NCBI GenBank assembly: GCA_054600435.1
Contig: BAAIJX010000004.1
Location: 62,001-126,000 of the forward strand
Length of the DNA stretch: 64,000 nt
Direction of reading: 5' to 3'
From: Neophaeotheca triangularis
Lineage: Eukaryota
A program made the translations under genes and the position numbers. A model generated the notes under the pieces. It made no database searches. It saw only the letters and a list, made by a program, of their open reading frames with translations, and had not been told where the DNA came from. Positions 2,261 to 63,071 of this stretch are shown here, in pieces (positions within the stretch are counted from its first letter, which is position 1; every line of letters starts with the position of its first letter).

Positions 2261-3073
2261 TCAGTTGCTACCGAGAGTCCTACCACCTCCCGACCCTCCG
2301 AGACCCCCCTGGCTACCACCACCCTGCCCGCCCTGAACTCCGCCACCAACATCCACTTTCGCAAATGCAGACAAAAATTCCCAAGTCAACCCTTTGTCCT
2401 CATCGAGGGCCTGCTTGACCTCCGGCACCTTAATGAGCTCTCCGCCATTCTGACGAATCAGCTCATGCATGATGCTCTTGAATTTTCCGGTGACGTCGCC
2501 TTCGTAGAGGGCCAAGACAACCTCTACGACCTTGTCGGTATTGCCGTCGGCGGCGTCGGCGAGGGCTCTGATGCGCTTGGCCATCTCGAGGCGAAGACCG
2601 GGCACCAGGTATTTGTCGGCCGTTCTGAAGACTTCGAGATAAAACGAACAGGCCGGGGCGGTCTCGAGGTGCATGGCCTCGGTCACGGTGGAGGAGTTGG
2701 GGCGGTAAAGCCAGCGGAAAACCATCTCTAGCGCATTGGCGTCGTCGTCGTGGAGCGTGATTTCGGTCTTGCCGGCCTCCTGGATTTGGTTAGTACGTCA
2801 GATCGTGTATTGGGTGTGAGGCCATGTGGTACTTACAGCCCACTCGGAATCTGGCCCCATCGCATTCATGAAGTACGCATTATCGTTGCAGAGGATAATG
2901 CGGTGGAGGCGAATGGAGCGCTCGCTGCTCTTGCCGTAGACGATCTTGATGTCGGAAAAAGCGGCGGCGTTGGCACCACCGGTGAAGAAGCTGATGCCTG
3001 TTAGTTTAACGGTGCAGGACTTGCAGACCGTGAGCGCAGGAACCCACTTGGAGAAATCTCCGACGGAAGGCAT
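2261..3073 (-). CDS. BTB/POZ-domain protein
   Basis: Exons 3073-3048, 2990-2837 and 2779-2261 (introns GTGGGT..CTAAC..CAG and GTAAGT..CTAAC..CAG). Spliced product MPSVGDFSNFFTGG...FSDIKIV...LHRIILC...YF...EAGKTEITLHDDDANALEMVFRWLY is a typical fungal BTB signature. Confidence 0.8.
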
Positions 3074-32043: not shown

Positions 32044-34796
32044 ATGGTCAAGTAAGTTTGGCCCTATACACGACGACGTAAAGAGGAGGCTCAATGGCGG
32101 GCGGCACCAGACCTTGACAATGCTGGTGGTAGTGGTCCTGGTGGTGGTGACGGTGGTGATGGTGATTATGCCGGTGGCGGCGCTGACAATACTCCACCCA
32201 CAGCTTCACCGTCGAGGAGATCCGTGGTCTCATGGACACTCCCAAGAACATCCGTAACATGTCCGTCATTGCCCACGTCGACCACGGAAAGTCTACCCTC
32301 ACCGACTCCCTCGTCCAGCGCGCGGGTATCATTTCGGCCAAGAACGCTGGTTCAGCCCGTTTCACCGATACCCGTCCCGATGAGCAGGAGCGTGGTGTCA
32401 CCATCAAGTCGACCGCCATCTCCCTGTTCGCCCAGCTCGGCGACCCAGAGGACATGAAGGACATTATCGGCTCCAGCAAGACCCCCGACGAGAAGAACGA
32501 GTTCTTGGTCAACTTGATCGACTCGCCCGGTCACGTTGACTTTTCCTCCGAAGTCACTGCTGCTCTCCGTGTCACCGATGGTGCTCTCGTCGTCGTCGAC
32601 ACCATCGAAGGTGTGTGCGTGCAAACCGAGACTGTGCTCCGCCAGGCTCTCGGTGAGCGTATCAAGCCTGTCGTTGTCATCAACAAGGTCGACCGTGCGT
32701 TGCTCGAACTGCAACTCTCCAAGGAAGACCTGTTCCAGAACTTCTCCCGTGTCATCGAGTCCGTCAACGTCGTCATCTCCACCTACTTCGACAAGGCGCT
32801 TGGTGACGTCCAGGTCTACCCCGACAGAGGTACCGTCGCTTTCGGTTCCGGTCTTCACGGCTGGGCCTTCACCGTCAGGCAGTTCGCCACCAGGTACGCC
32901 AAGAAGTTTGGTGTCGACAAGACCAAGATGATGGAGAGGCTTTGGGTGAGTTTCGAACACTCCGTTAATTTTGAAAGTGAATGATTTCTAACTCTCTATC
33001 AGGGCGACAACTACTTCAACCCCAAGACCAAGAAGTGGACCAAGACCGGTACCCACGAGGGCCAGCCTCTTGAGCGTGCCTTCAACCAGTTCTGTCTTGA
33101 CCCCATTTTCCGCATTTTCGATGCCATCATGAACTTCAAGAAGGAGGAGATCCCCAAGCTTCTCGAAAAGCTCGAAGTCAAGCTTGTTGGTGACGAGAGG
33201 GACCTCGAGGGCAAGCAGCTCCTCAAGGTGGTCATGCGCAAGTTCTTGCCCGCCGCCGACGCTCTCTTGGAGATGATGATTCTCCACCTGCCATCTCCCG
33301 TCACGGCCCAGAAGTACCGTATGGAGACTCTCTACGAGGGTCCCCCTGACGATGAGGCCGCCATTGCCATCCGTGACTGTGACCACAAGGGCCAGCTCAT
33401 GTTGTACGTCTCCAAGATGGTGCCGACCTCCGACAAGGGTCGTTTCTACGCCTTCGGTCGTGTCTTCGCCGGTACCGCCCGTTCCGGTCTCAAGGTCCGC
33501 ATTCAGGGCCCCAACTACACCCCTGGTCGCAAGGAGGACATGTTCATCAAGAGCATCCAGCGTACCATTCTCATGATGGGTCGCTACACTGAGCCCATCG
33601 AGGATGTGCCCGCCGGTAACATTCTCGGTCTCGTTGGTATCGACCAGTTCTTGCTCAAGTCTGGTACCCTCACCACTTCCGAGACCGCCCACAACCTCAA
33701 GGTCATGAAGTTCTCCGTCTCCCCCGTCGTGCAGCGCTCCGTCGAGGTCAAGAACGCCAACGATCTGCCCAAGTTGGTCGAAGGTCTCAAGCGTCTGTCC
33801 AAGTCCGACCCTTGCGTCTTGACCATGATCAACGAGTCTGGCGAGCACGTTGTCGCTGGTGCTGGTGAGCTCCACTTGGAGATTTGCTTGCGCGATCTCG
33901 AGGAGGACCACGCTGGTGTGCCCCTCCGCATCTCCGACCCTGTTGTGCAGTACCGTGAGTCTGTCAACGGCGAGTCGAGCATGACTGCCCTGTCCAAGTC
34001 GCCCAACAAGCACAACCGTCTCTACCTGACCGCCCAGCCTTTAGCTGAGGAGGTTTGCAAGGACATTGAGCAGGGCCGCATCACCCCCCGTGACGACTTC
34101 AAGGCTCGTGCCCGTATCCTTGCCGACGACCACGGTTGGGATGTCACCGACGCCAGGAAGATCTGGTGTTTCGGTCCCGACACCAACGGTGCCAACTTGC
34201 TCGTTGACCAGACCAAGGCCGTGCAGTACCTCAACGAAATCAAGGACTCCGTCGTCTCTGGTTTCCAATGGGCCACCAAGGAAGGTCCCGTTGCCGAAGA
34301 GCCCATGCGCTCGGTCCGCTTCAACATCATGGATGTCACCCTCCACGCTGACGCCATTCACCGTGGTGGTGGACAAATCATCCCTACGGCCCGTCGTGTC
34401 CTCTACGCCGCCACCCTGCTCGCTGACCCCGGTCTCCTCGAGCCCGTCTTCTTGGTCGAGATCCAGGTCCCCGAGCAAGCCATGGGTGGTATCTACAGCG
34501 TGCTCACCCGCCGTCGTGGACACGTTTTCGAGGAGACCCAGCGTCCCGGTACTCCCCTCTTCACCGTCAAGGCTTACCTGCCCGTCAACGAGTCTTTCGG
34601 TTTCAACGCCGACCTGCGCTCCAACACCTCCGGCCAGGCTTTCCCCCAGTCCGTCTTCGACCACTGGCAGCTGCTTCCCGGTGGCAGCCCGCTCGACAAG
34701 ACCTCCAAGGTCGGCGAGATTGTTGCCGAGATGCGCAAGCGCAAGGGTATCAAGATCGATGTGCCCGACTACACGAACTACTACGACAAGTTGTAA
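32044..34796 (+). CDS. EFT2: Translation elongation factor 2
   Basis: Exons 32044-32051, 32204-32945 and 33003-34796. MVNFTVEEIR..., G1 [21 protein letters not shown], diphthamide loop [11 protein letters not shown], end YYDKL. Strong codon bias. Confidence 0.99.
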
Positions 34797-36109: not shown

Positions 36110-38422
36110 CTACCACCGATCGTCCTCCTCAGCAACATCCTCACCATAAACCTGCTTCTGCCGCTCCCGTTCCTGCTCAGCGTCAACATCTGCTTCCAAA
36201 TCCATAACAACGTTCCCATCATTCGCGGCCTCGACACCAACCTTACCGACCGTACTTCCCTCCGCTCCGCCGCCAGCACTCGCTTCCACAGCCGGCAGCG
36301 TCCCAGTAAACCACTCAACCTCACACTTCCCAACCCCCTCCAGCACACCCCCTTTCCCACCTTTAAGCGCGAGCAAGAACCTCTCCGCCAAATACCGCTC
36401 CGTGTACCCCACCACGGCCGCGTCTTCGCGCTCCGGGTGCGGCAGCACGGTTCCTTCGTCCAAACCATCGCCGAGGAAGACGAACTGCCGCAGCGCCTCG
36501 GCAGCTGAAGTGTAAGAGTGCTCGGGAGCGGGAAAGATGACGGCCAGAGCTTTCGGCCGGTTGTCGAGACGCTTGACGGCGCCGCCGAAACCTGCGCGGC
36601 CGCCGCGGTAGCTGGGAGCATGGCCGTAGTCGGGAGTGCCGCGGGCTCTGCCTCTGCCGCGACCGCGACCGCGGAAACCGCTCGGGTCGTAGGCCTGGTG
36701 GGAGTGCGTCTGTGGGCTGTTAGGATCTTGGTTTGATGAGGAAGTGTAGAAGGTTGCCGGGTCGAGGCCGGCGGAACTGGCTTCTTGCTCGAGCGCGGCG
36801 AGTTTCTCGCGCAATGCGCGGGTGGATTCGGATTCGTTGGGTTTGGGGGTCGGGATGTCGGAGGTGGTGGTAGCCGGGGCTGGGCTGGCGGAGGCTTTCC
36901 CGCTCTTTTTTGCTAGCATGGCGGCCATCTTCGCTCGCTCTTCATTCATCGCCTTCATTTTGGCGTCGAGTTCTTCTTTTTGCTTGGCTGCGGCTTCGCG
37001 CTTGCTTTGCTGTTCTTCGTGCTTCTTTTGCGCTTCTTCTTGTCGACGAGCCAGTTCTGTAGGGTCAATGGCGGCTTCTTGCGTGTCTTGATAGTTTGAC
37101 ATCTCCGTATCCTCGCCCGCTGCCTGGCCGTTTGTTGGCTTTGTGGCGTCTCTTTCCGGTTTATACCAGTATACTTTGACGAAGCGGTTGTCGAAGACGA
37201 CTTTTGGGCTTTGGTAGGCGGCTTTTGCTTCTTCATAGTCGCTGAATTTCACGATTGCCAGCTTTTTCCACTCTTGCATTGTAACTTCCTCAATCTGTCC
37301 GAATTGGCTGAAGAATTCTCGCACTGCTTCTTCGGAAAACTTGTCCTCCGGTATCTGCTCAACTACAAGCGATGTGATGGAGCGATCTTGGTTCATGCCC
37401 GTAGAGGAAAACTCTGATCTACCGCCACGCCCACGGCCCCTCCCTCTCATCCCACCTCTGCCACGTTCAGAGCGGTTATTCGAGGAGTGCATGTTGACAC
37501 TACCAGAACGATCCGGTTGTGGCCCATTGAAGAAGGCCGCATTCGGGTTGGATGGATCGTACTCGGAGTGGCCATTCGCATCCAGAGGGGTATCATCGTG
37601 GTCGTACTTGCAAGTCGCGCCAAAGGTGCAATATCCCTTCTGATCGTAATCTCTGCATCTCTTGCCCGTCTTGCGAGGAGCATTGAATCCATTGCCCTGG
37701 GGAGGCGCGTTGTAAGCATTGCCATTCTGGAAAGGCGATCCACCCGCACCAGCAGGTGGCATAGGCATTCCCATAGCCTGAAGAGCGGCAAGCATGGCCG
37801 CAGGGTTGTTGGGGTCGAAAGGAGGCATCCCTTGAGGAGGCGTAGGCATGCGAGGCATGTTACCCATCTGCGGCATCCCAGCGGCAGGCCCAGTGGGCGG
37901 CATAAAGTTTTGAAACTGCTGCATTGACTGGTGCTGCGGTTGCTGCGGGACAACTCCGCCACGGCCACCTCGCGCATCGAGCCCACCACCCCTACCACGC
38001 CTAGCCTGCTTCATCGGTCTATTCTCAGCTTGCCCAAACCCTGGCAACTGCTGGCCCGGCACTTGCTGCTGACTCGTCGCATCCTCCTCAAACCCTCTCT
38101 TCACACCCGCACCGGCGCCCATACCTGATGCGGCTGGCGCAACCCCACCCGCACCCGCAGGCTTTGGCACCCAGCCCACCTCAAACTTCCTCTCCCTGAT
38201 AGCAGCAAAAACCTCCTCGACAAAGCCCTCACTCTTCTCCTGTAAGAAATCTTGCAAGCTGTCCACCGCGGTCGGTTTGGCCGCTTCCTCACTCTCGTCA
38301 CTCCCGACCAGCGCTAGAACATAGTCGGCCAGAACATCGCTGTCGGCGTCGCTTATGACTTCGAGGCGTTTGGTGACCCATGTCTTCAGTGCTTCCGTAT
38401 CTGAATCGCCGAGGATCGGCAT
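36110..38422 (-). CDS. RBM26/RBM27-like RNA-binding protein (PWI + CCCH zinc finger + RRM)
   Basis: PWI-like LKTWVTKRLEVISDADSDVLADYVLAL, CCCH CRDYDQKGYCTFGATCKYDH, RRM with FFSQFGQI and VFDNRFVKVYW, RGG tracts. Start MPILG at 38422. Confidence 0.9.
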   Translation of the reverse strand: MPILGDSDTEALKTWVTKRLEVISDADSDVLADYVLALVGSDESEEAAKPTAVDSLQDFLQEKSEGFVEEVFAAIRERKFEVGWVPKPAGAGGVAPAASGMGAGAGVKRGFEEDATSQQQVPGQQLPGFGQAENRPMKQARRGRGGGLDARGGRGGVVPQQPQHQSMQQFQNFMPPTGPAAGMPQMGNMPRMPTPPQGMPPFDPNNPAAMLAALQAMGMPMPPAGAGGSPFQNGNAYNAPPQGNGFNAPRKTGKRCRDYDQKGYCTFGATCKYDHDDTPLDANGHSEYDPSNPNAAFFNGPQPDRSGSVNMHSSNNRSERGRGGMRGRGRGRGGRSEFSSTGMNQDRSITSLVVEQIPEDKFSEEAVREFFSQFGQIEEVTMQEWKKLAIVKFSDYEEAKAAYQSPKVVFDNRFVKVYWYKPERDATKPTNGQAAGEDTEMSNYQDTQEAAIDPTELARRQEEAQKKHEEQQSKREAAAKQKEELDAKMKAMNEERAKMAAMLAKKSGKASASPAPATTTSDIPTPKPNESESTRALREKLAALEQEASSAGLDPATFYTSSSNQDPNSPQTHSHQAYDPSGFRGRGRGRGRARGTPDYGHAPSYRGGRAGFGGAVKRLDNRPKALAVIFPAPEHSYTSAAEALRQFVFLGDGLDEGTVLPHPEREDAAVVGYTERYLAERFLLALKGGKGGVLEGVGKCEVEWFTGTLPAVEASAGGGAEGSTVGKVGVEAANDGNVVMDLEADVDAEQERERQKQVYGEDVAEEDDRW

Positions 38423-39097
38423 GATTGTTCGGCTGTTTGGACGGCGTTTGAAGCTATGGTGAAGGGTACAATATGTTGGCTGTACAAATAGTTGGAAGAG
38501 CTTAGAGGGCGGCACTAGGTGAAGGTCGCGTTTAGTAAGAGCTAACAAAGGGTTGTCGGCTTGGTGGTGGCGGTAAGGATATAGCTACTCGTGGTGGTGA
38601 GGTTGGTATGAATTTTGAACTCGCGCAGTCAAAGGTGTGCGCTGAGGGTTGACTGAGGTAGGTAAAGGTCGCGCGCAAAGAAACGCGATCCCAGCTCGCT
38701 TCATCAGTAAGGTTGAAGCTTGCTGCCAAGACACTGACGTCGGGATTTGCTGAACGTCACTTAGGGTTCAGGTTTGGGTAGGACAATCGTTGCTTTAACA
38801 CACTACGGCGACGGAGCACGTTTGTTCTTTCGAATTTGGAGACGTCGGCTATGACGAGATCATAAATTGGTCCAAGGCTCGTCGTTTTGTGCAAGCGGAA
38901 TGAATGTTCACACTAAACTGTCCGTATTCTGTGTATCTGTGGGTGGGAAATCTAAGCCGAGCCCTTGACCCCTGGCTTTGCAGCAAGCGGAACACGCCGG
39001 ATTTGGCCGAAGAAACCCACTTTTGTCATTCAACGTCTGAGAGCACAATTCAAAAGATTATATTTGAACACACATCAATTCCATCATCCGATCAAGC

Positions 39098-39308
39098 GGT
39101 GAGATGTTAGTAACACTAAAACATCCATTCAACCCGATCAGTAACTGACTCCCACCAGGGCCGAGCGGTCTAAGGCGGTTAGTACACACCAACAATTCGT
39201 CCTCGTTCACCTGAACCAACCTAATCACCTCATTAGCCAGCTTAAGGTGTTCACACATCTGAAGTTCGCTGGTCCGAAAGGGCGTGGGTTCGAATCCCAC
39301 TCTCATCA
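39098..39308 (+). tRNA. tRNA-Leu(AAG) gene in four pieces: two spliceosomal-type introns plus one canonical tRNA intron
   Basis: Exons 39098-39105, 39159-39177, 39237-39247 and 39267-39308 join to GGTGAGATGGCCGAGCGGTCTAAGGCGCCAGCTTAAGGCGCTGGTCCGAAAGGGCGTGGGTTCGAATCCCACTCTCATCA (80 nt). Acceptor GGTGAGA/TCTCATC (one G-U), D stem GCC/GGC, anticodon stem CCAGC/GCTGG around TTAAGGC, long variable arm, T arm GTGGG-TTCGAAT-CCCAC, discriminator A. Confidence 0.88.
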
Positions 39309-39323
39309 ACAGTTGAGACTTGA

Positions 39324-39331
39324 TTTTTTTT
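39324..39331 (+). terminator. RNA polymerase III oligo(T) terminator
   Basis: T8 run starting 16 nt after the tRNA discriminator base. Confidence 0.8.
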
Positions 39332-40207
39332 GCACTTTTCCCCCTCACGTCCTCCTCTATGAGGCAGGGTAGCCTGTAGGTAATAGGGCTTTAGTCTGAG
39401 CTCGGCAGGTTGATGGGTACCGAATTGCATACTCGTTTCATGCTTATCCTATCCTTTTCGTATCTTTTTTCTTCTCTCGTATATTTCTCCAGTCTCCTAG
39501 ATATCGATTCATCGAAATCCCATGGACAATGATACGAGAACCCAAGCCCAGCGTAATATCCGATCTAAGCAGCGTCGTGGCTCCGAAGCCCGTCATCGTC
39601 TTTTCGCCTTCACGCCCGCTAACACCAGTAAAACGCTTCTTTCGGATATCTCAACTCCTTTACAACCCTCGAACCGCAATGGATCAAAGGAATCACAAGC
39701 GGAACGATCATGGTCAATGTTTGAAAGATATTTTTGGCACGAAAGGAACTTGAGACAGGAGACAGCCTCGATGGTTTTTGGGGCAAAGAAAAAAAAAAAA
39801 AACCTTACACAGAGGCGTATTGTAGGAGGTACTGTCGCATTTTAATGTTGGGAAGATTTTTCCCGGGATAAACAAGAACCAGTCGCCCCAGCACACCCAT
39901 GGCACACACTATTCAAGAAACGAAAAGATGAAAGGACACGGCAAAAGCAAAGCCGCAAAACCGACGAGAGAGACGGCAAACCCAGCCCCTGTCAATTGTA
40001 GCAAAGATGGGAGCGGCGACTTCCACTTGATCCATCTATACATCCAAGTAAGTACAAGCGAGTAACCAAACACCACCGCTCTTCCTCCCTCGATGGCTCG
40101 AGAGACCAGCGTAGATGCCCTAGCTCTTTCGCACCAACATGACATCCACAACACTCGGGGCCACTCTCGCTCTCATCTTTCACTCTATCAAGATTCTCTA
40201 CCTTCAT

Positions 40208-42444
40208 CTACATCTTCGCCTTGCCCTCTTGGGTAGTCGGCAGCAGCAAATCCCTGACCTCTCCGGCAGCCTCATCGATGAAGAAACTCATGCGGTCGCA
40301 ACCGAGGTGCTTGCTGATAATGTTGAACTGCAAACTGTTCTCGTTGATCATGTAGGCGATACTGCAAGACGATCCACAACGTTAGCGAACTGTAAACCAA
40401 GCGCGGAATGAAAAGGAAAGAAGAGAAAATCAAACTCACCCCCACCCCTCATCAATGACCTGACTCCATCCATAACCATTGAAATACTCCGAACTCAACT
40501 GACTGGACGAAATGAACCAATTCCCGCTGTATCCAAACGCATCGTCCTTGTAAATTTCCGGAACCTCTTCGCCGCTTCCAATCATCTTCTTCAGCCCGAA
40601 CAAATGCCTGTCCACGCCCTTGCCATCGCTCGCATCGGTAATGTACTTGACGTGAGCGTCCACGGCGGCGCGGAATCGCTGCCGACATTCATCGGGAGAG
40701 ACGTTGGGGTCGGCCATGCCGTCGCAGAAAGCGACCGATTCGTCCGACACGGAGCGGCAGGTTTCGGTGCGGCCTTGTTGGAAACGACGGGTTGCGGCGG
40801 ATTCGTACGTCGGGCGATTCTTACCGTAGAATTTGTGGTAGGCGAGTTGGATCAGCAGCTGCACGTAGGCGTCGGGGGAGCACTTGAATTTCTTGATCAG
40901 GCCTTTGCCGTAACCTTTGTAGGCTTGCACGCGGAGGTCGTGCTCGCCGATGAGTTTGACGTGGTGCGAGGTGGCGGTTGCAATGTCGGTTTGGTTTTCA
41001 GGGGTGAGTTTGAATTGCAGGGGGGTGGGGGAGGGGAGGGTGGAGCGGACGGTCGGGTTGTCGTAGTCGAGCTTGTTTTCATGCATGAGCATGTTGATGT
41101 AGTCGTTGAGACGGTGCGTGGGGGTTCCGTCCATCATGCTGTGCTCGCCCATGAAGCCAGAGGTGCCGTTGTCGTTGACGATGAATTGGAGCGGCTTGTC
41201 GAACCAGCGATTGCTGCCGTCGCCGTGCCAGTATTGGTGTGCGCGCTCTTCGAGGGTGATGGGGGAGGCGTCGTCGAGGCAGACAACAAACGAGGACGAC
41301 TCAATCTCTTTGAGAGTGGTCTCATTGGTAGGAGCGGCGGTAATCAGGCGCTCACGCATTTCTGTCCAGGTGTCGCGGTTTTCGGTCGTCATGATACCGA
41401 CGGCGGGGGATTTCTCTGCTGCCTCGTAGATGCGCTGGAATTGCTGCTCGAGTTCTTTGGTGGTGAGCTGCTTGCCGTCGACTTCGTGCTTGAGCTTGAA
41501 GAACTGGTTCTTGCGGACAACCACAATGTGCGCATTCTCAGCGGCGGGGTATTTGGCAGGGTAGTCTGCGGGAGCGGCGGGGATGCGGCAGGCGTTGAAC
41601 ATCCACTCGTAGCTGCTCATTGCAATGGGGAGCTTCTTCATGTATTCAGGCTCAAGAGTACCCTCGTCGACCTGCTTCTTGAACTCGAGCACGCTGGTTG
41701 TGATGGCCGCGGCCCTCTTGGCTGGCTGCCTCCTCCTCCTGTCATCGCGGTGGCTGTAAAAGTAGCTCACGTACGGTACGACGGGGTCACGGTAGCCCAG
41801 GTATGCTGCGTGGTTCCACCATTCGTAGATCCAGTTCTTCATACCGGGCTCATCCCTACGCGCTTCGAGACGCTTCTGCAATTCATGACCAAAGCTGCCA
41901 GGAGCGATGAAAGCATCGACGGCTTTCTGTGTCTTTGCGTACTCTTCCTTGCTGAGGAGAGGGTGTACGGACTTGAGGTAGCGCTGGGCGGTCTCCTCGA
42001 GAGTGGGGACGGGGAGGGTGGGGAGGGAGTCTTCGTAGCGGAGCATGGGGCCCTTGGAGTGGTCCTCTTTGTAGCCTGAACATTTACTATTAGCTTTGCC
42101 CCATCCGGCAGCGGCGGATTAGAAAGGATGCATACTCCCAGGCAGGCCACTGCTCTTCCTCTGCTGCTGTTGCTGCGTCGGCGCCATCCTTGCAATCTCA
42201 ACCTAAAACGACAACAAGTATCTCAAGTCAGTGACGAGTACGATAAAAGGGCAATGACGATGGATAGAAAGGAAAGAAGCAAGCCGGTCGGTCTCGAGCT
42301 CTACTAGAAAAAAGTCACGATATTACGCACCTTCGGCACACGAGCTCTGGTAGTAGTCAAATACCTCGGCGTAGCAGCGGGCGTGGTGGTGGTGATGCGG
42401 GAGGCTCTGGTGATCAGCGAGGAGCTCGCTCTCGTCAGAAACAT
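40208..42444 (-). CDS. CAT2: Carnitine O-acetyltransferase, mitochondrial/peroxisomal (Cat2/AcuJ-like)
   Basis: Exons 42444-42331, 42202-42136, 42075-40440 and 40361-40208. LPTLPVPTLEET, NRWFDK, catalytic EHSMMDG, TYESAATRRFQQGRTE. R/S/T-rich presequence and C-terminal AKM. Confidence 0.95.
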
Positions 42445-42515: not shown

Positions 42516-42661
42516 TTGAGTGAGTGGTATGCGAAAAGGACAGCGTGTGGGTTTCTGATCTAAACAGGACAAGAGTGGTAAACTTGGTAAGTTACCTAGG
42601 TAAGGTAGGTAGAGAACCCTAGTCTCATTGACTTAGGTTGTTGTTGGCTATCCGCCAAACA

Positions 42662-51222: not shown

Positions 51223-53721
51223 ATGGGCGCGGACTCTTCCCCTCCATACCTCTACGAGGCCCCCAGCCGGCGCAGCGTTGCCTACCCATACTCGGATTTC
51301 AACCCAAAGCGCGTCTCGCAGAATGCCTACTACACCGCTCTCTCCGCCCAACAGCAGCAGCGGGAACATCAACACCGACCGAAGAGAGAGGGACCGCTGA
51401 TCAATTTCAACGAGCATCCCGACTCTTACCTCATCCTTCCGCAAAAGCCTCAACGGACGGACCTCAAGGCTTTGCCTCCAGGGACGAAGAAGGCCATCAC
51501 GGTGACAAGATGGGTGCAATTCGCGTTGAGATTGGTGCAATTGATTGGTTGCATCGGATTGTTGGTACTGGTGATTTTTGTCAAAGGGGCGCAGAATGCA
51601 GAAGCGTGGATTATGAGGATACCCGTGAGTCCAGCTAGACGTCTTAGGTTTGCTTGCCGGCGACTGACTTTGAAATGACAGCCCGCTTGGGACATCCTTA
51701 TCACTCTATACGCCATCTACCACCTCCAACGCCCGGCCAAAGGACGCACTCCCGCCAGCAGCTCCAGCTACCATGTCTTCGCCCTCTCCATGGACATAGG
51801 CCTCATCCCGTTTTACGTCTACATCGCCATGGTTTCCCAAAGTAACTACGTCTTGGAGACCGGCGCAAATGGACGTTGGCGGACCTACTTCGACGCAAAG
51901 GCAACCAATGCAATCTTGCTGGCTATTTTCGTCGCCTCTATCGTACAAGGTGCACTACACTTGATCAGCATCGGAATCGACATCTATCTTTTCATCGTCT
52001 TCAGGAAGATTGCTCAACTTCCACAGGATATGAACCCTTTGGAGGACAACCTCACATCTAGGGGCCCTAGGCAGAAAGGCCACAAGTATAAGAACTCGGA
52101 CGCACCTCTGTTGGCTCAGATGAGCGAGAAGAAGGGGGCGCAAATGAGTGAAAGTACCGTCTCCCTGAACAACCCGGCTCGTGCTTCTATGCGTGACTCC
52201 TACATGTCAGACTATCGGGCTGTTCCTTTCGGCCACAGCAGATTGGATTCGGATACGACATTCTCTCCTCACAATCCCGACTCTGCAAGGTACTCACGAC
52301 AGCAATACGAGCAAGTCTATCAGCAATCCTCTTCAGCACGGGATTCCCGTCCAGACCTTGGAGAGCACAGGAACTCAAGAACAGATTCGCTCTCCCCGTC
52401 AAAGAAAAAGTCGTTTGTCGACACCTTTGAAATTCCTAGCGCACCTTCGATAGAAGCCCTCACAATGGTGCGTCCGGAATCACGCCCTGCACGTCCAGGG
52501 ACCGCCGGTCGCTTTACCTCTCCAGGCCCAGACACTGCCAACAATGCCGCTCTGACAGATGAGGTGGCCAAGAGCCAACAGAAAGAAGGCCTGCTGAACG
52601 ACAACTGGTACGTCATGGACGACGAGAACGAGACTGGCGACATCGGTCAAGCCTCCACAATCCGTGGCCGCTCTCCTCCTCGCGCGCACGATACCACTCT
52701 CGCCGCTCTCGACGGCGGCAACAGCAGGGCCCACCAGTCCACGATAAACCCGCTTCAAGTGCCTCAACCCCTGAAATCCCACCCACCAAGTCCAACTCCC
52801 GACTCTGGCAACCCGGATATCTCGACCGCCCGCACCCCTCCCCCAATAATGCCCCCTGAACTCCAACACCTGCAAACAACCCTCAAGAGAAACCCCACAA
52901 TCGCGACTGATTCTTCCTCAATCTACTCACGCCCCTCCATCCACTCTCGCCACTCCCAACACTCTCTCTACAATAGCAACGACCCCTCGCGCTCTCTAAC
53001 GTCGACCCCCAAGAACAAATACTACGGCGACCTACAAGCCGCCACCCTCGGCATCCGCGGCCCACCCTCTCCAAACCGCGCAAACTCCCGACCAGGCTCT
53101 AGTGGCGGCGAGAGCAAACGCGGCCGCTACGCCGCCTCCCACGACCCACAGCGCTCCTACCACCAATCGCCCAGCCGTCCGAGCAGCCGCCCAGGAAGCC
53201 GTCCGAACAGCCGCCCTGCCAGCCGCTCCAACTCCCTCTACAACGAAACGTCCAGCCTGTACAACCAAGACCCGCACCCGGACCTCCCACCTCCCGTTCC
53301 CACGCGCACATCTTACAACCCAACGACCCAAACCACCACAAGAAGCGACGGCAGCCCAGAACCCCCACTCAAAAGCCCCAAACGCCGCTCCACGCACTTC
53401 CCGGCCTCGACCGATCCCACCAACGCCAATGCCGGTGCCGAAACCGACGCCCCAGGCAGCCCGAGCAAGCACCGCGGCCACCGACGGGAACAAAGCCGCG
53501 GCCCACCGCAAGAGAGCCCTACCAGAGCGCAAGCCCAGCCCAGAGTCATCAGCCGCAGCGGCGCGGATTTTCATGAATACCAATTCGAGCCATCGGTCGC
53601 GAAACCGGGGCTGAGCGCGGGGGTTTGGGGCAAGGGACCGCAAGCCAGCACGGGCGGGGCGAGGAGGCGCGAAGTCAGTGGTAAAGTTGCCGAGGAGGGG
53701 AGGGGGGGCGTGGGGTATTAG
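51223..53721 (+). CDS. Uncharacterised fungal membrane protein (about 4 N-terminal TM segments, long disordered S/P/R-rich tail)
   Basis: Exon 51223-51624, intron 51625-51681 (GTGAGT..CTGAC..CAG), then in frame into the 643-aa ORF. Several hydrophobic stretches, then LPQDMNPLEDNLT. Confidence 0.8.
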
Positions 53722-61992: not shown

Positions 61993-63071
61993 ACAGGTTA
62001 CCGAGCTATTCTTATACGTTTGTTGGATCGCGCACATTCCCCTTCTGCCCCTGTGAAGCAGATTGAGCCTATCGACAGGGCTCGAATCAGCCACGAAACG
62101 ATGCTGCCGCGGCCGTAGCATTTGATCGCAGCGACCATCCGTAGCTGGGAAACAACAACAGCGAATTCTGCCTGCACATGATGGACCGCCGGCGCTGCTC
62201 CGCAAAAACTCTGGAGCCACCCCACGAAACCTACTACCGGCTGGGGTTCATCTCGAGGACCTACACGTCAGCCAGCAGCTGTACCTCGCGCTCGAATGCA
62301 ACGCGACAGCCCCATCCAAGCTAGGGGACCCTTGGCCCTCCTTCCTCACGTGCTCCATCCATCGCAGGAGACTCTCGTTTCAAGCGCCAATCACTCTTCG
62401 ATTGAAGGAAATCTGGCTACCTCACCCTCCCAGGCTTCTACCGCCCTGAAGCCACAAGCGCAAACTTCTCCCTTCTGAGCATCTTCACTATGCTCTGGAA
62501 ATCCGTGCAAAAAGTCCGACCGAAACCCCAGTCAGTCACGCCCGTTTCAGCATCTTGGTGCTAACATAAAACCAGCCCGACTGGCTGGTAGGATACGACC
62601 TCCAACCTGAAAGGAGTCAGCTCGCGAAATAGCCCGCACGAGTAGGATTCCTCTTTTGAAAGATCGTACACCATGTCCAGGGTGACGTCGGTGACAAAGC
62701 GGCATCGTGGAAAGAGGACAATCTTCTCGTCGCGCAACTAGTTCGCTCTGCTTGCGCAAGTCAAGAGATCATGACCTTGAAATGTCTTGTTTGGTTCTCG
62801 TCCTTGATGCTGAGACGCTTCTGGATAAGAAGATTGCGCGAGCAGCTAGCAGTGCGGGAATCAGCACTAGGGCCTTCTTAGAGCCTACCTATCCCGTGGA
62901 GTCGCGAGACAGCCTAGCTTAGTAGAAACCTTTTTCGAGATGGAGTTGATCAGTAAACACACATCCATCAGCCACGGTTCCAAGAGCGCTGACAACACAA
63001 ATCTCCATACTAGCAAGTAACAGTACTATACAGCGTCCACAAGCACCCTCACCCAAGCAAACCCAACACCC

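Follow-up and report, generated by a model that had tools for sequence, protein, structure and literature searches.

In reviews, the introns of tRNA genes and spliceosomal introns are treated as separate classes with separate machines for their removal (PMC12530127; PMC10485636). The four-subunit tRNA endonuclease (TSEN) of fungi and animals is described as removing introns only between tRNA positions 37 and 38 (PMC10485636). The spliceosome removes the intron of fission yeast U6 snRNA, and a fungal U6 gene can contain as many as four introns of this type (PMC5855946); the enzyme that makes U6 is polymerase III (bioRxiv 10.1101/2023.01.27.525755). GT-AG introns, recognized mostly by sequence signals, are also described in fungal U1, U2 and U5 snRNA, U3 snoRNA and rRNA (PMC5855946; PMC5832005). 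Genes for tRNA that contain two or three introns, the D arm included, plus the canonical one are described in Cyanidioschyzon merolae and in the nucleomorphs of cryptophytes and chlorarachniophytes, and standard eukaryotic tRNA finders miss them (PMC4090602; PMC10485636; PMC9602550). No report of spliceosomal introns in tRNA genes was found in the literature. Introner-like elements of Dothideomycete fungi are a known route by which new spliceosomal introns arise at unusual places.

Here, we describe a locus at 39098-39308 on the + strand of the window, the whole 64-kb stretch of DNA that was analyzed. It forms a complete tRNA-Leu(AAG) only once two inserts, 39106-39158 and 39178-39236, are removed and the intron that interrupts the tRNA at 37/38 (39248-39266) is also taken out. 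The layout is as follows:

39098-39105, + strand: exon 1, 8 nt, the 5′ strand of the acceptor stem (7 nt) and T8; pairs with 39301-39307 (7 bp, one G-T)
39106-39158, + strand: insert 1, 53 nt, at 8/9 of the tRNA
39106-39111, 39144-39149 and 39156-39158, + strand: signals of insert 1, namely donor GTTAGT, branch box ACTGAC and acceptor CAG
39148, + strand: predicted branch A of insert 1, 10 nt before the end of the insert
39159-39177, + strand: exon 2, 19 nt, from G9 to G26, with the whole D arm and most of the A box
39178-39236, + strand: insert 2, 59 nt, between tRNA positions 26 and 27
39178-39183, 39221-39225 and 39234-39236, + strand: signals of insert 2, namely donor GTTAGT, branch box CTAAT and acceptor TAG
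39224, + strand: predicted branch A of insert 2, 12 nt before the end of the insert
39237-39308, + strand: exon 3, containing the canonical 37/38 intron
39237-39247, + strand: exon 3a, the 5′ strand of the anticodon stem and the loop to G37, with anticodon AAG at 39244-39246
39248-39266, + strand: 19-nt canonical intron at 37/38; the tRNA is 80 nt long when this and both inserts are removed
39267-39308, + strand: exon 3b, with C38, the 3′ strand of the anticodon stem, the long variable arm, the T arm and the 3′ strand of the acceptor stem
39287-39297, 39301-39307 and 39308, + strand: B box, 3′ strand of the acceptor stem and discriminator A, all within exon 3b

The host resembles fungal U6 in being the gene of a small, structured RNA that does not code for protein, which for U6 is made by polymerase III. 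Unlike U6, it is a tRNA and not a component of the spliceosome, and the explanation of U6 introns by reverse splicing into an RNA at the catalytic center is not directly applicable; moreover, the third intron of the tRNA calls for another splicing system, one made of protein only. The inserts share GT-AG ends and sequence signals with the introns of the other fungal snRNAs, U3 and rRNA, but neither source names a tRNA among the hosts (PMC5855946; PMC5832005), which in the review are U6, U2, U5, U1 and rRNA (PMC5855946). As in C. merolae and the nucleomorphs, further introns accompany the canonical one. However, the introns of those genes are described as short, of the bulge-helix-bulge (BHB) type in C. 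merolae, and their removal is attributed to an endonuclease, whereas those found here are 53-59 nt long and have GT-AG ends and a branch box but no BHB.

The identity of the gene becomes apparent only after removal of the inserts. ARAGORN called no tRNA at the locus in the native window, and Rfam found on the native sequence only a T-arm fragment of 15.9 bits (39279-39300). When all three pieces were cut out by their coordinates, ARAGORN called a tRNA-Leu(aag) of 80 nt whose acceptor stem has 7 bp; this is how the spliced and unspliced forms compare when scored against each other, as a preliminary description of this DNA had suggested. The D arm is identical in 8/8 uninterrupted Leu/Ser-type genes, and the variable and T arms are nearly identical to those of uninterrupted genes. 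The joins of exon 1 with exon 2 and of exon 2 with exon 3 fit the layout of the same eight genes and of an uninterrupted relative, L002, which also has an intron at the 37/38 site. ARAGORN itself cannot fix the borders, as 92 of 98 constructs shifted by up to 3 nt were still called as tRNA, and both insert borders are ambiguous by one base (G/G), GT-AG being one of two equivalent cuts. The two inserts and their signals read in the sequence just as the preliminary description had given them. Its claim that no base is gained or lost on their removal is borne out by the uninterrupted Leu/Ser-type genes, all eight of which have T-G directly 5′ of GCCGAG, as in the join of exons 1 and 2. The length of 80 nt that it gave for the product correctly implies loss of the 37/38 intron, although this third intron was never named. 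Two parses by ARAGORN -i were rejected: with insert 1 alone removed, a spurious Glu(ttc) swallowed insert 2 in an 81-nt "intron," and with both inserts removed, Leu(taa) was called with the canonical intron misplaced, an anticodon-loop intron still being required. The first two exons, of 8 and 19 nt, are short for spliceosomal exons, which counts against the explanation preferred below.

Both inserts carry the signals of spliceosomal introns. Each begins with the donor GTTAGT, which is near GTRAGT, although none of the window's four best mRNA introns, with their GTGAGT or GTAAGT, shares the T at +3. The branch boxes follow CTRAY, with CTGAC 10 nt and CTAAT 12 nt before the end of the respective insert (10-15 nt in the mRNA introns of the window), and the inserts end in YAG, CAG in insert 1 and TAG in insert 2. 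The four best mRNA introns measure 57, 57, 57, and 114 nt, and the inserts, at 53 and 59 nt, match them in size. A three-signal filter (GTNAGT as donor, CTRAY at a distance of 8-20 nt from the end, YAG as acceptor), applied to segments of 45-70 nt on both strands of the whole window, passed only 8 of 3,324,360 segments, among them the two tRNA inserts, an alternative end of insert 2 and three mRNA introns whose removal restores an open reading frame. The resemblance to the mRNA introns of the window noted in the preliminary description thus holds for signals and sizes, apart from the T at +3. Its further proposal, that the transcript is a spliceosome substrate at 8/9 and 26/27, is favored by all sequence and comparative tests, but no spliced joint across either insert was seen in the public contigs from sources X1, X2, X3, and X5, which are of low depth and cannot show absence. 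The RNA-type contigs from X2 (39088-39252) and X5 (39148-39317), the library type of the latter being a guess, retain the inserts and may be carried-over DNA. Overall, the sequence favors the assignment of the inserts at 8/9 and 26/27 to spliceosomal-type introns, and their splicing is predicted on this basis.

Is there any sign of another way of removal? At the exact junctions, 4 of the 10 possible BHB pairs form for each insert, and the best of 49 shifted registers gives 7 and 8 pairs, against a random mean of 6.74 (sd 1.18); the BHB motif, or its relaxed form HBh′, is absent at the junctions of inserts 1 and 2. A tRNA endonuclease route is therefore unlikely for them. By position, too, only 39248-39266 fits a canonical intron removed by TSEN and tRNA ligase, in contrast to the inserts at 8/9 and 26/27, where the four-subunit TSEN is said to be inactive (PMC10485636). 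Neither insert has a notably stable fold (z -1.64 for insert 1 and -0.95 for insert 2), and a structured or self-splicing element is supported neither by these values nor by Rfam, which gave only chance-level matches in the inserts at E up to 10. Inspection by eye found no IRE1-type stem-loops at the junctions. A common origin of the two inserts is likewise unsupported, as 17% of shuffles score as well, and no further copy of either lies within the 64-kb window. Introner-like elements are marked by many near-identical copies across a genome; as far as the 64-kb window goes, the lack of further copies, of significant likeness to each other and of a stable fold would set the inserts apart from them.

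Public contigs contain three versions of insert 2, all of 59 nt, and the two versions other than that of the window have CTAAC in place of CTAAT. DNA contigs of X1 match the window without difference over 38800-39188 and 39282-39600, and over 39189-39281 they have a different insert 2; the insert 2 of the window has an exact match in a 165-nt contig of X2 (39088-39252, 0 differences). In a 153-nt contig of X1 (39159-39311), 12 substitutions and 2 one-base indels all fall inside 39196-39233 of insert 2, that is, 14 changes in the 59 nt of the insert versus none over 94 nt around it (39159-39177 and 39237-39311). The insert of this contig has CTAAC for CTAAT and retains the donor, TAG and the 59-nt length. 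X3 and X5 have the third version, with 5 differences each, and the insert accounts for 5/5 of them in X3 and for 4 or more in X5; the flanks of X3 are about 6-7% diverged from the window. A second copy in X3 has a diverged insert 1 (8 substitutions and 3 indels over 39086-39186) and a different upstream flank, and a further copy in X1 and X3 has a differing insert-1 tail, again with CTAAC about 10 nt before AG. In one paralogue, the border of insert 1 and exon 2 has one G fewer, which means either a one-base shift or a defective copy. Among these related strains, X1 has no fewer than two copies with this architecture and X3 no fewer than three, and in all copies compared exon 2 is invariant and the canonical intron without differences. 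The exons are under purifying selection relative to the inserts and flanks. This pattern of conservation over copies and strains, like the anatomy, the splice signals and the missing BHB motif, is seen directly in the DNA. X1 and X3 yielded no contig joining exon 2 to exon 3 and none leaving exon 3 into unlike sequence before 39237 or 39267, which carries no weight for or against an intron-free copy, since contigs can show presence but not absence. Two wider scans gave only rejected candidates: exon 2 followed by GTNNGT matched 8 loci in metagenomes, all of them ordinary uninterrupted tRNA genes whose anticodon stem happens to begin with GTNNGT and none of them a relative, and the end of exon 2 followed by the donor gave 9 chance matches in bacterial and archaeal genomes.

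The signals that may govern transcription are the following:

39059-39065, + strand: TATA-like box TATATTT, 33-39 nt before tRNA position 1, a putative promoter element
39088-39097, + strand: putative 5′ leader; an X2 RNA-library contig begins at 39088, a weak hint, as a contig cannot prove a start
39324-39331, + strand: run of eight T residues, 16 nt past the end of the tRNA, resembling a polymerase III terminator

The gene is intergenic and lies on the strand opposite to both neighbors; an antisense open reading frame (39058-39390) has no Pfam match. In X3, a paralogue whose upstream flank differs in other respects has TATATAT in the same position, and a T>C change at 39326 in the terminator-like run leaves five T residues. 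The transcribed unit itself contains no T run longer than 2, but this depletion is not a significant polymerase III signature, since the same is true of 14.5% of random 237-nt windows. The A and B boxes are intact in the tRNA sequence and, together with the T8 run and the TATA-like box, are indirect signs of polymerase III. Insert 1 displaces the A box to about 100 nt from the TATA-like box. If TFIIIC and TFIIIB chose the start site by its distance from the A box, the start would fall inside insert 1 and exon 1 would be lost. The preliminary description placed insert 1 correctly but overlooked this separation of the A box from exon 1, a real problem for the choice of the start site.

We consider it probable that the locus belongs to a working family of nuclear tRNA-Leu(AAG) genes with a precursor that requires two spliceosomal steps and, after them, one step by TSEN. 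The removal of the inserts, the removing enzyme, the polymerase and the order of events are what we infer from the features above. The gene would be a member of a small family, with a precursor containing three introns of two kinds. The precursor, probably a polymerase III transcript of about 240 nt, would start near 39088, at a site set by the TATA-like box upstream and not by the A box in its displaced position, and end at the T run. Two U2-type (GT-AG) introns, at 8/9 and 26/27, would be removed by the spliceosome. Only after this could the cloverleaf form, and TSEN and ligase would then remove the canonical 37/38 intron. The logic would be the same as that of fission yeast U6 snRNA, which is made by polymerase III and spliced by the spliceosome.

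The precursor might instead be a capped polymerase II transcript that starts from the TATA-like box and is spliced co-transcriptionally, the tRNA being freed by RNase P and RNase Z. The X2 contig begins about 28 nt downstream of this box, a distance that suits polymerases II and III alike. Initiation by polymerase II would remove the difficulty of the displaced A box and also favor the recognition of a donor that lies only about 18 nt from the 5′ end; in Arabidopsis, a tRNA-like molecule with a precursor made by polymerase II is described (PMC6152437). Still, we regard polymerase II as unlikely, though worth serious attention, in view of the eight T residues that follow the gene at 16 nt and persist for the most part in X3 (T5), the lack of any visible same-strand gene around the locus and, as a weak hint, the fact that neither RNA-type contig passes beyond 39088-39317. 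U6 shows, moreover, that a polymerase III transcript can be spliced (10.1101/2023.01.27.525755; PMC5855946). Another reading takes the copies as dead or dying tRNA-derived sequences, pseudogenes or a repeat, whose insertions are never removed, with Leu(AAG) supplied by uninterrupted genes elsewhere. Insertions in the D or T arm of eukaryotic tRNA genes are indeed usually taken for pseudogenes (PMC4090602), the contigs of X1, X2, X3, and X5 contain no spliced RNA, and one paralogue has the one-base discrepancy at a border. We consider this reading unlikely: with 8 passing segments in 3,324,360, full splice signals in both of two random insertions are implausible; within a single contig, the exons and the canonical intron have no difference in 94 nt, as against 14 changes in the 59 nt of insert 2; and the branch box is kept or improved while the architecture is the same in at least two X1 copies and three X3 copies.

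Removal by a protein endonuclease and a ligase, whether the endonuclease is TSEN with a relaxed motif or an enzyme like IRE1, has its model in C. merolae and the nucleomorphs, where excision from tRNA genes with several introns, the D arm included, has been confirmed (PMC4090602; PMC9602550), and bases 1-4 of the acceptor can pair with the four that immediately precede the AG of insert 1 (register shifted by -2). It is nonetheless very unlikely, as only 4 of 10 BHB pairs form at the true junctions and the best shifted registers do not rise above random; in addition, inserts of 53-59 nt with GT-AG ends and branch boxes contrast with nucleomorph insertions of 3-24 nt (PMC4090602), and fungal TSEN is described as confined to 37/38 (PMC10485636). 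That the interruption is an artefact of assembly or a chimera, as might be suspected because X1, the best DNA source, is without the window's version of 39189-39281, is most improbable. Over both flanks and from exon 1 to the start of insert 2, X1 does not differ from the window, an independent X2 contig of 165 nt is exact over 39088-39252, the window's version of insert 2 included, and X3 and X5 have the same architecture.

If the preferred reading, two spliceosomal steps followed by TSEN, is correct, the mRNA-splicing machinery helps to make a tRNA, which has not been described before. The three kinds of tRNA intron, TSEN/BHB, group I and group II, would then be joined by a fourth, and mRNA-type introns would extend among non-coding RNAs beyond snRNAs, U3 and rRNA. 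Two unrelated splicing systems would act in series on one transcript of about 240 nt, and the gene would provide a natural test both of splicing with exons of 8 and 19 nt and of polymerase III with a displaced A box. A review of U6 raises as an open question whether abundance, structure or closeness to the catalytic center governs the sites at which non-coding RNAs gain new spliceosomal introns (PMC5855946); the locus would bear on it, tRNA being abundant yet outside the spliceosome. A wider version, which we put forward tentatively as a serious possibility, is that all gene copies of the main CUN-leucine tRNA in this fungal lineage carry the two spliceosomal introns, that these are older than the gene duplication, and that an essential tRNA thus depends on the spliceosome and then on TSEN. 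Counts of eukaryotic tRNA genes may be incomplete, because the finders are described as allowing an intron only at 37/38 (PMC10485636). Both ARAGORN and Rfam miss the uncut gene; such genes are invisible to standard tRNA finders, and the phenomenon may therefore be wider than one family.

The tRNA-Leu(AAG) gene at 39098-39308 is an interrupted gene, and this observation is confirmed: the sequence reads as the preliminary description claimed, with two inserts at 39106-39158 and 39178-39236 splitting the tRNA. A canonical tRNA intron lies inside the 72-nt third piece, and therefore the gene has three interruptions.

Parts of the tRNA-Leu(AAG) gene
39098-39105, plus strand: exon 1, 8 nt; acceptor 5' strand and T8
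39106-39158, plus strand: insert 1, 53 nt; GTTAGT donor, CTGAC box, CAG end
39159-39177, plus strand: exon 2, 19 nt; exactly G9-G26, the D arm
39178-39236, plus strand: insert 2, 59 nt; GTTAGT donor, CTAAT box, TAG end
39237-39308, plus strand: exon 3, 72 nt; anticodon arm, long variable arm, T arm, acceptor 3' strand, discriminator A
39248-39266, plus strand: canonical tRNA intron, 19 nt; between G37 and C38

No tRNA is called by ARAGORN in the native 64 kb, and Rfam has no match in the window at gathering score; a relaxed threshold gives only a T-arm fragment (15.9 bits). Pieces were deleted by coordinates in a script and the results rescanned. With the intron option, ARAGORN calls a tRNA after deletion of both inserts, but nothing in the native sequence or after deletion of insert 2 alone; a 'Glu(ttc)' call with insert 1 alone deleted is a spurious parse. 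Once all three pieces are deleted, the call is tRNA-Leu(aag), 80 nt long and with an acceptor stem of 7 bp. Insert removal does restore tRNA-Leu as had been claimed, once the canonical intron is also deleted, and the in-silico spliced form is called as a tRNA where the unspliced one is not.

The insert borders are not fixed by ARAGORN, which still calls a tRNA in 92 of 98 constructs whose borders are moved by up to 3 nt. The exact borders are those indicated by comparison with uninterrupted genes. In eight of eight uninterrupted Leu/Ser-type genes from metagenomes, T-G stands immediately 5' of the same D-arm sequence and G26 is followed immediately by the 5-nt anticodon-stem strand; one of these genes (L002) has the variable arm and almost all of the T arm in common with the present gene, and its sole intron is at 37/38. 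The joins match this layout, in agreement with the claim that no base is gained or lost. Either insert border can be shifted by one base with the product unchanged, the GT-AG cut being one of two equivalent readings. A second acceptor-like CAG lies at 39238-39240, 4 nt past the TAG of insert 2; its use would leave the anticodon stem short of four bases.

GTTAGT opens both inserts and YAG closes them (CAG in insert 1, TAG in insert 2), and a CTRAY box is found in each, CTGAC 10 nt from the end of insert 1 and CTAAT 12 nt from the end of insert 2. How often do such signals coincide? When GTNAGT, CTRAY 8-20 nt from the end and YAG were jointly required of all 45-70 nt segments on both window strands (n = 3,324,360), eight passed.

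Segments passing all three splice signals
39106-39158, plus strand: insert 1
39178-39236, plus strand: insert 2
Alternative 63-nt end of insert 2, plus strand: second CAG at 39238-39240
32946-33002: intron of the EF-2 gene; removal restores a long reading frame
51625-51681: intron; removal restores a long reading frame
2780-2836, minus strand: intron; removal restores a long reading frame
42520-42567, plus strand: antisense, inside the stretch covered by the carnitine acyltransferase ORF (minus strand, 40436-42118 and beyond)
62531-62575, plus strand: short, all three signals

The window holds 13 ORF-restoring intron candidates. The four with GTRAGT donors were taken as the best mRNA intron set, and the other nine, with poor donors, may be of chance origin. 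The four best are 57, 57, 57 and 114 nt long, with CTAAC or CTGAC 10-15 nt from the end and CAG in all four. The likeness of the inserts to the mRNA introns of the window, as proposed earlier, holds for size, branch box and acceptor but not for the donor, which has T at +3 where the four best have A or G.

In animals and fungi, according to a 2023 review, the four-subunit tRNA splicing endonuclease (TSEN) excises no introns other than those between 37 and 38, which are also the only ones that eukaryotic tRNA finders consider (PMC10485636). A bulge-helix-bulge motif, scored per junction pair over 10 base pairs, 4 in the central helix and 3 in each of the two outer helices, reaches 4 of 10 pairs at the true junctions of each insert; with 49 shifted registers the best values are 7 and 8, against 6.74 ± 1.18 for 2000 random junction pairs. 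Neither insert has a notable fold (z of -1.64 for insert 1 and -0.95 for insert 2), and no Rfam match within them rises above chance level. No further copies of either insert are present in the 64-kb window, and the likeness of insert 1 to insert 2 is not significant, 17% of shuffles scoring as well. The reading of both inserts as spliceosomal introns is the best supported and, in our judgment, reasonably probable.

Public sequencing runs were compared through Logan contigs at 80% likeness (X1, X2, X3 and X5; 4 of 21 matching runs). X1, a DNA run and the best match, is identical to the window at 38800-39188 and 39282-39600. Between these flanks a single 153-nt contig (39159-39311; depth 194 vs 118-127 in the flanks) differs by 12 substitutions and two indels of one base each. 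These are confined to 39196-39233, leaving the canonical intron and exons 2 and 3 without change. The branch box of insert 2 is CTAAC for CTAAT (39225 T>C; adjoining 39220 C>T and 39226 C>A), and TAG and the 59-nt length are retained. Because exon 2 is also reached in another contig through an unlike insert-1 tail, the 153-nt contig is taken to merge two loci of the strain. The flanks are perfect, yet the insert-2 version has 14 changes, apparently in common with the strain's own paralogue (window 39189-39281), an indication of gene conversion among the copies of the tRNA gene, intron included.

X2, a metatranscriptomic RNA library, has a 165-nt contig exactly matching the window at 39088-39252, the window's insert-2 version included, which provides independent support for the assembly. 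X3 bears the same organism label as X1, and its flanks are 6-7% diverged; its orthologous locus has both inserts, with five substitutions in insert 2, all within the insert. A second X3 copy has a diverged insert 1 (8 substitutions and 3 indels over 39086-39186) and a different upstream flank, and a third has another insert-1 tail, in which CTAAC precedes AG by about 10 nt. In X5, which has another organism label and a library type that is only guessed, a 170-nt contig (39148-39317) contains insert 2 and shows five differences, at least four within the insert. Overall, among the matches listed, exons are invariant and insert bodies drift, with signals and lengths retained; for the X3 contigs over insert 1 this covers the differences placed in that listing. 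X1 has the interrupted architecture at two loci or more, and X3 at three or more. In the X1 and X3 paralogue, the insert-1 tail ends in ACA right before GGCCGAG, one G fewer than CAG/GGCC at 39158/39159 of the window; either the intron slid by one base (9/10 for 8/9) or the tRNA product would be short of one base.

Spliceosomal introns are known in genes for U6, U2, U5, U1 and rRNA (PMC5855946) and for U3 (PMC5832005). The literature check that had been called for yielded no report of one in a tRNA gene in open-access literature and bioRxiv, so that an earlier description elsewhere is possible. A 2014 tRNA-intron review nowhere uses the word stem 'spliceosom', names nucleomorphs and C. merolae for non-canonical eukaryotic tRNA introns, and presumes D- or T-arm insertions in other eukaryotes to be pseudogenes (PMC4090602); a 2025 paper terms the three eukaryotic intron types unrelated (PMC12530127). 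The present gene shares with U6-type genes mRNA-type introns in a small non-coding RNA gene, but its host is a tRNA, and an ordinary 37/38 intron stands beside them. As far as found, it is the first case of mRNA-type introns in a tRNA gene.

The most probable maturation path is as follows. A precursor of roughly 240 nt, from about 39088 to the T-run, would have both GT-AG introns excised by the spliceosome. The fungal spliceosome recognises introns as units, a mode termed intron definition, and should therefore cope with exons as short as 8 and 19 nt. In the fold predicted before splicing, pairing is already possible in the acceptor stem and T arm; only after the spliceosome has acted would the D arm and anticodon stem join them in the L-shape that TSEN would need to locate the 37/38 intron, and end processing and ligation would come last. 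The intron of fission yeast U6 is spliced by the spliceosome (PMC5855946) and U6 is transcribed there by polymerase III, as stated in a preprint (10.1101/2023.01.27.525755), so that a polymerase III product can serve as a spliceosome substrate. The A box, separated by insert 1, lies about 100 nt from a TATA-like box, and therefore the start would be set by that upstream element, or else the precursor would be made by polymerase II.

No contig in X1, X2, X3 or X5 joins across either insert. The contigs from both RNA-type libraries (X2 and X5) are unspliced and possibly derive from carried-over DNA; both fit inside the span expected of a polymerase III unit, from 39088 up to the T-run, and this counts as no more than a weak hint. 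Mature tRNA is seldom captured by ordinary RNA-seq and its reads are not locus-specific, so we still infer the removal of the inserts.

The tRNA gene is intergenic, with no enclosing gene on the same strand.

Surroundings of the gene
36110-38422, minus strand: left neighbour, PWI / CCCH zinc-finger / RRM protein; 5' end toward the tRNA, start near 38422
39059-39065, plus strand: TATA-like box TATATTT, 33-39 nt upstream of tRNA position 1
39324-39331, plus strand: T8 run, 16 nt downstream of the tRNA end
3' side, minus strand: right neighbour, carnitine acyltransferase gene

One paper reports informative TATA-like motifs (-34 to -28) in S. pombe and A. thaliana but in none of the other species that it studied (PMC11547032). 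The differently flanked second copy of X3 has TATATAT at the offset of the window's TATA-like box. The longest T-run between 39088 and 39324 is at most 2, which proves nothing because T-runs above 2 are likewise absent from 14.5% of random 237-nt windows. The left neighbour, head-to-head and about 675 nt from the tRNA gene, has domains typical of RNA-processing factors, probably a coincidence. Genes for EF-2 and malate dehydrogenase lie farther out. The kinds of gene present and the style of their introns suggest a fungus of filamentous type. The related strain of X3 has 212 extra letters at 38934-38937, upstream of the tRNA gene, and an intergenic A14 run is located at 39789-39802 (plus strand) between the tRNA and carnitine acyltransferase genes.
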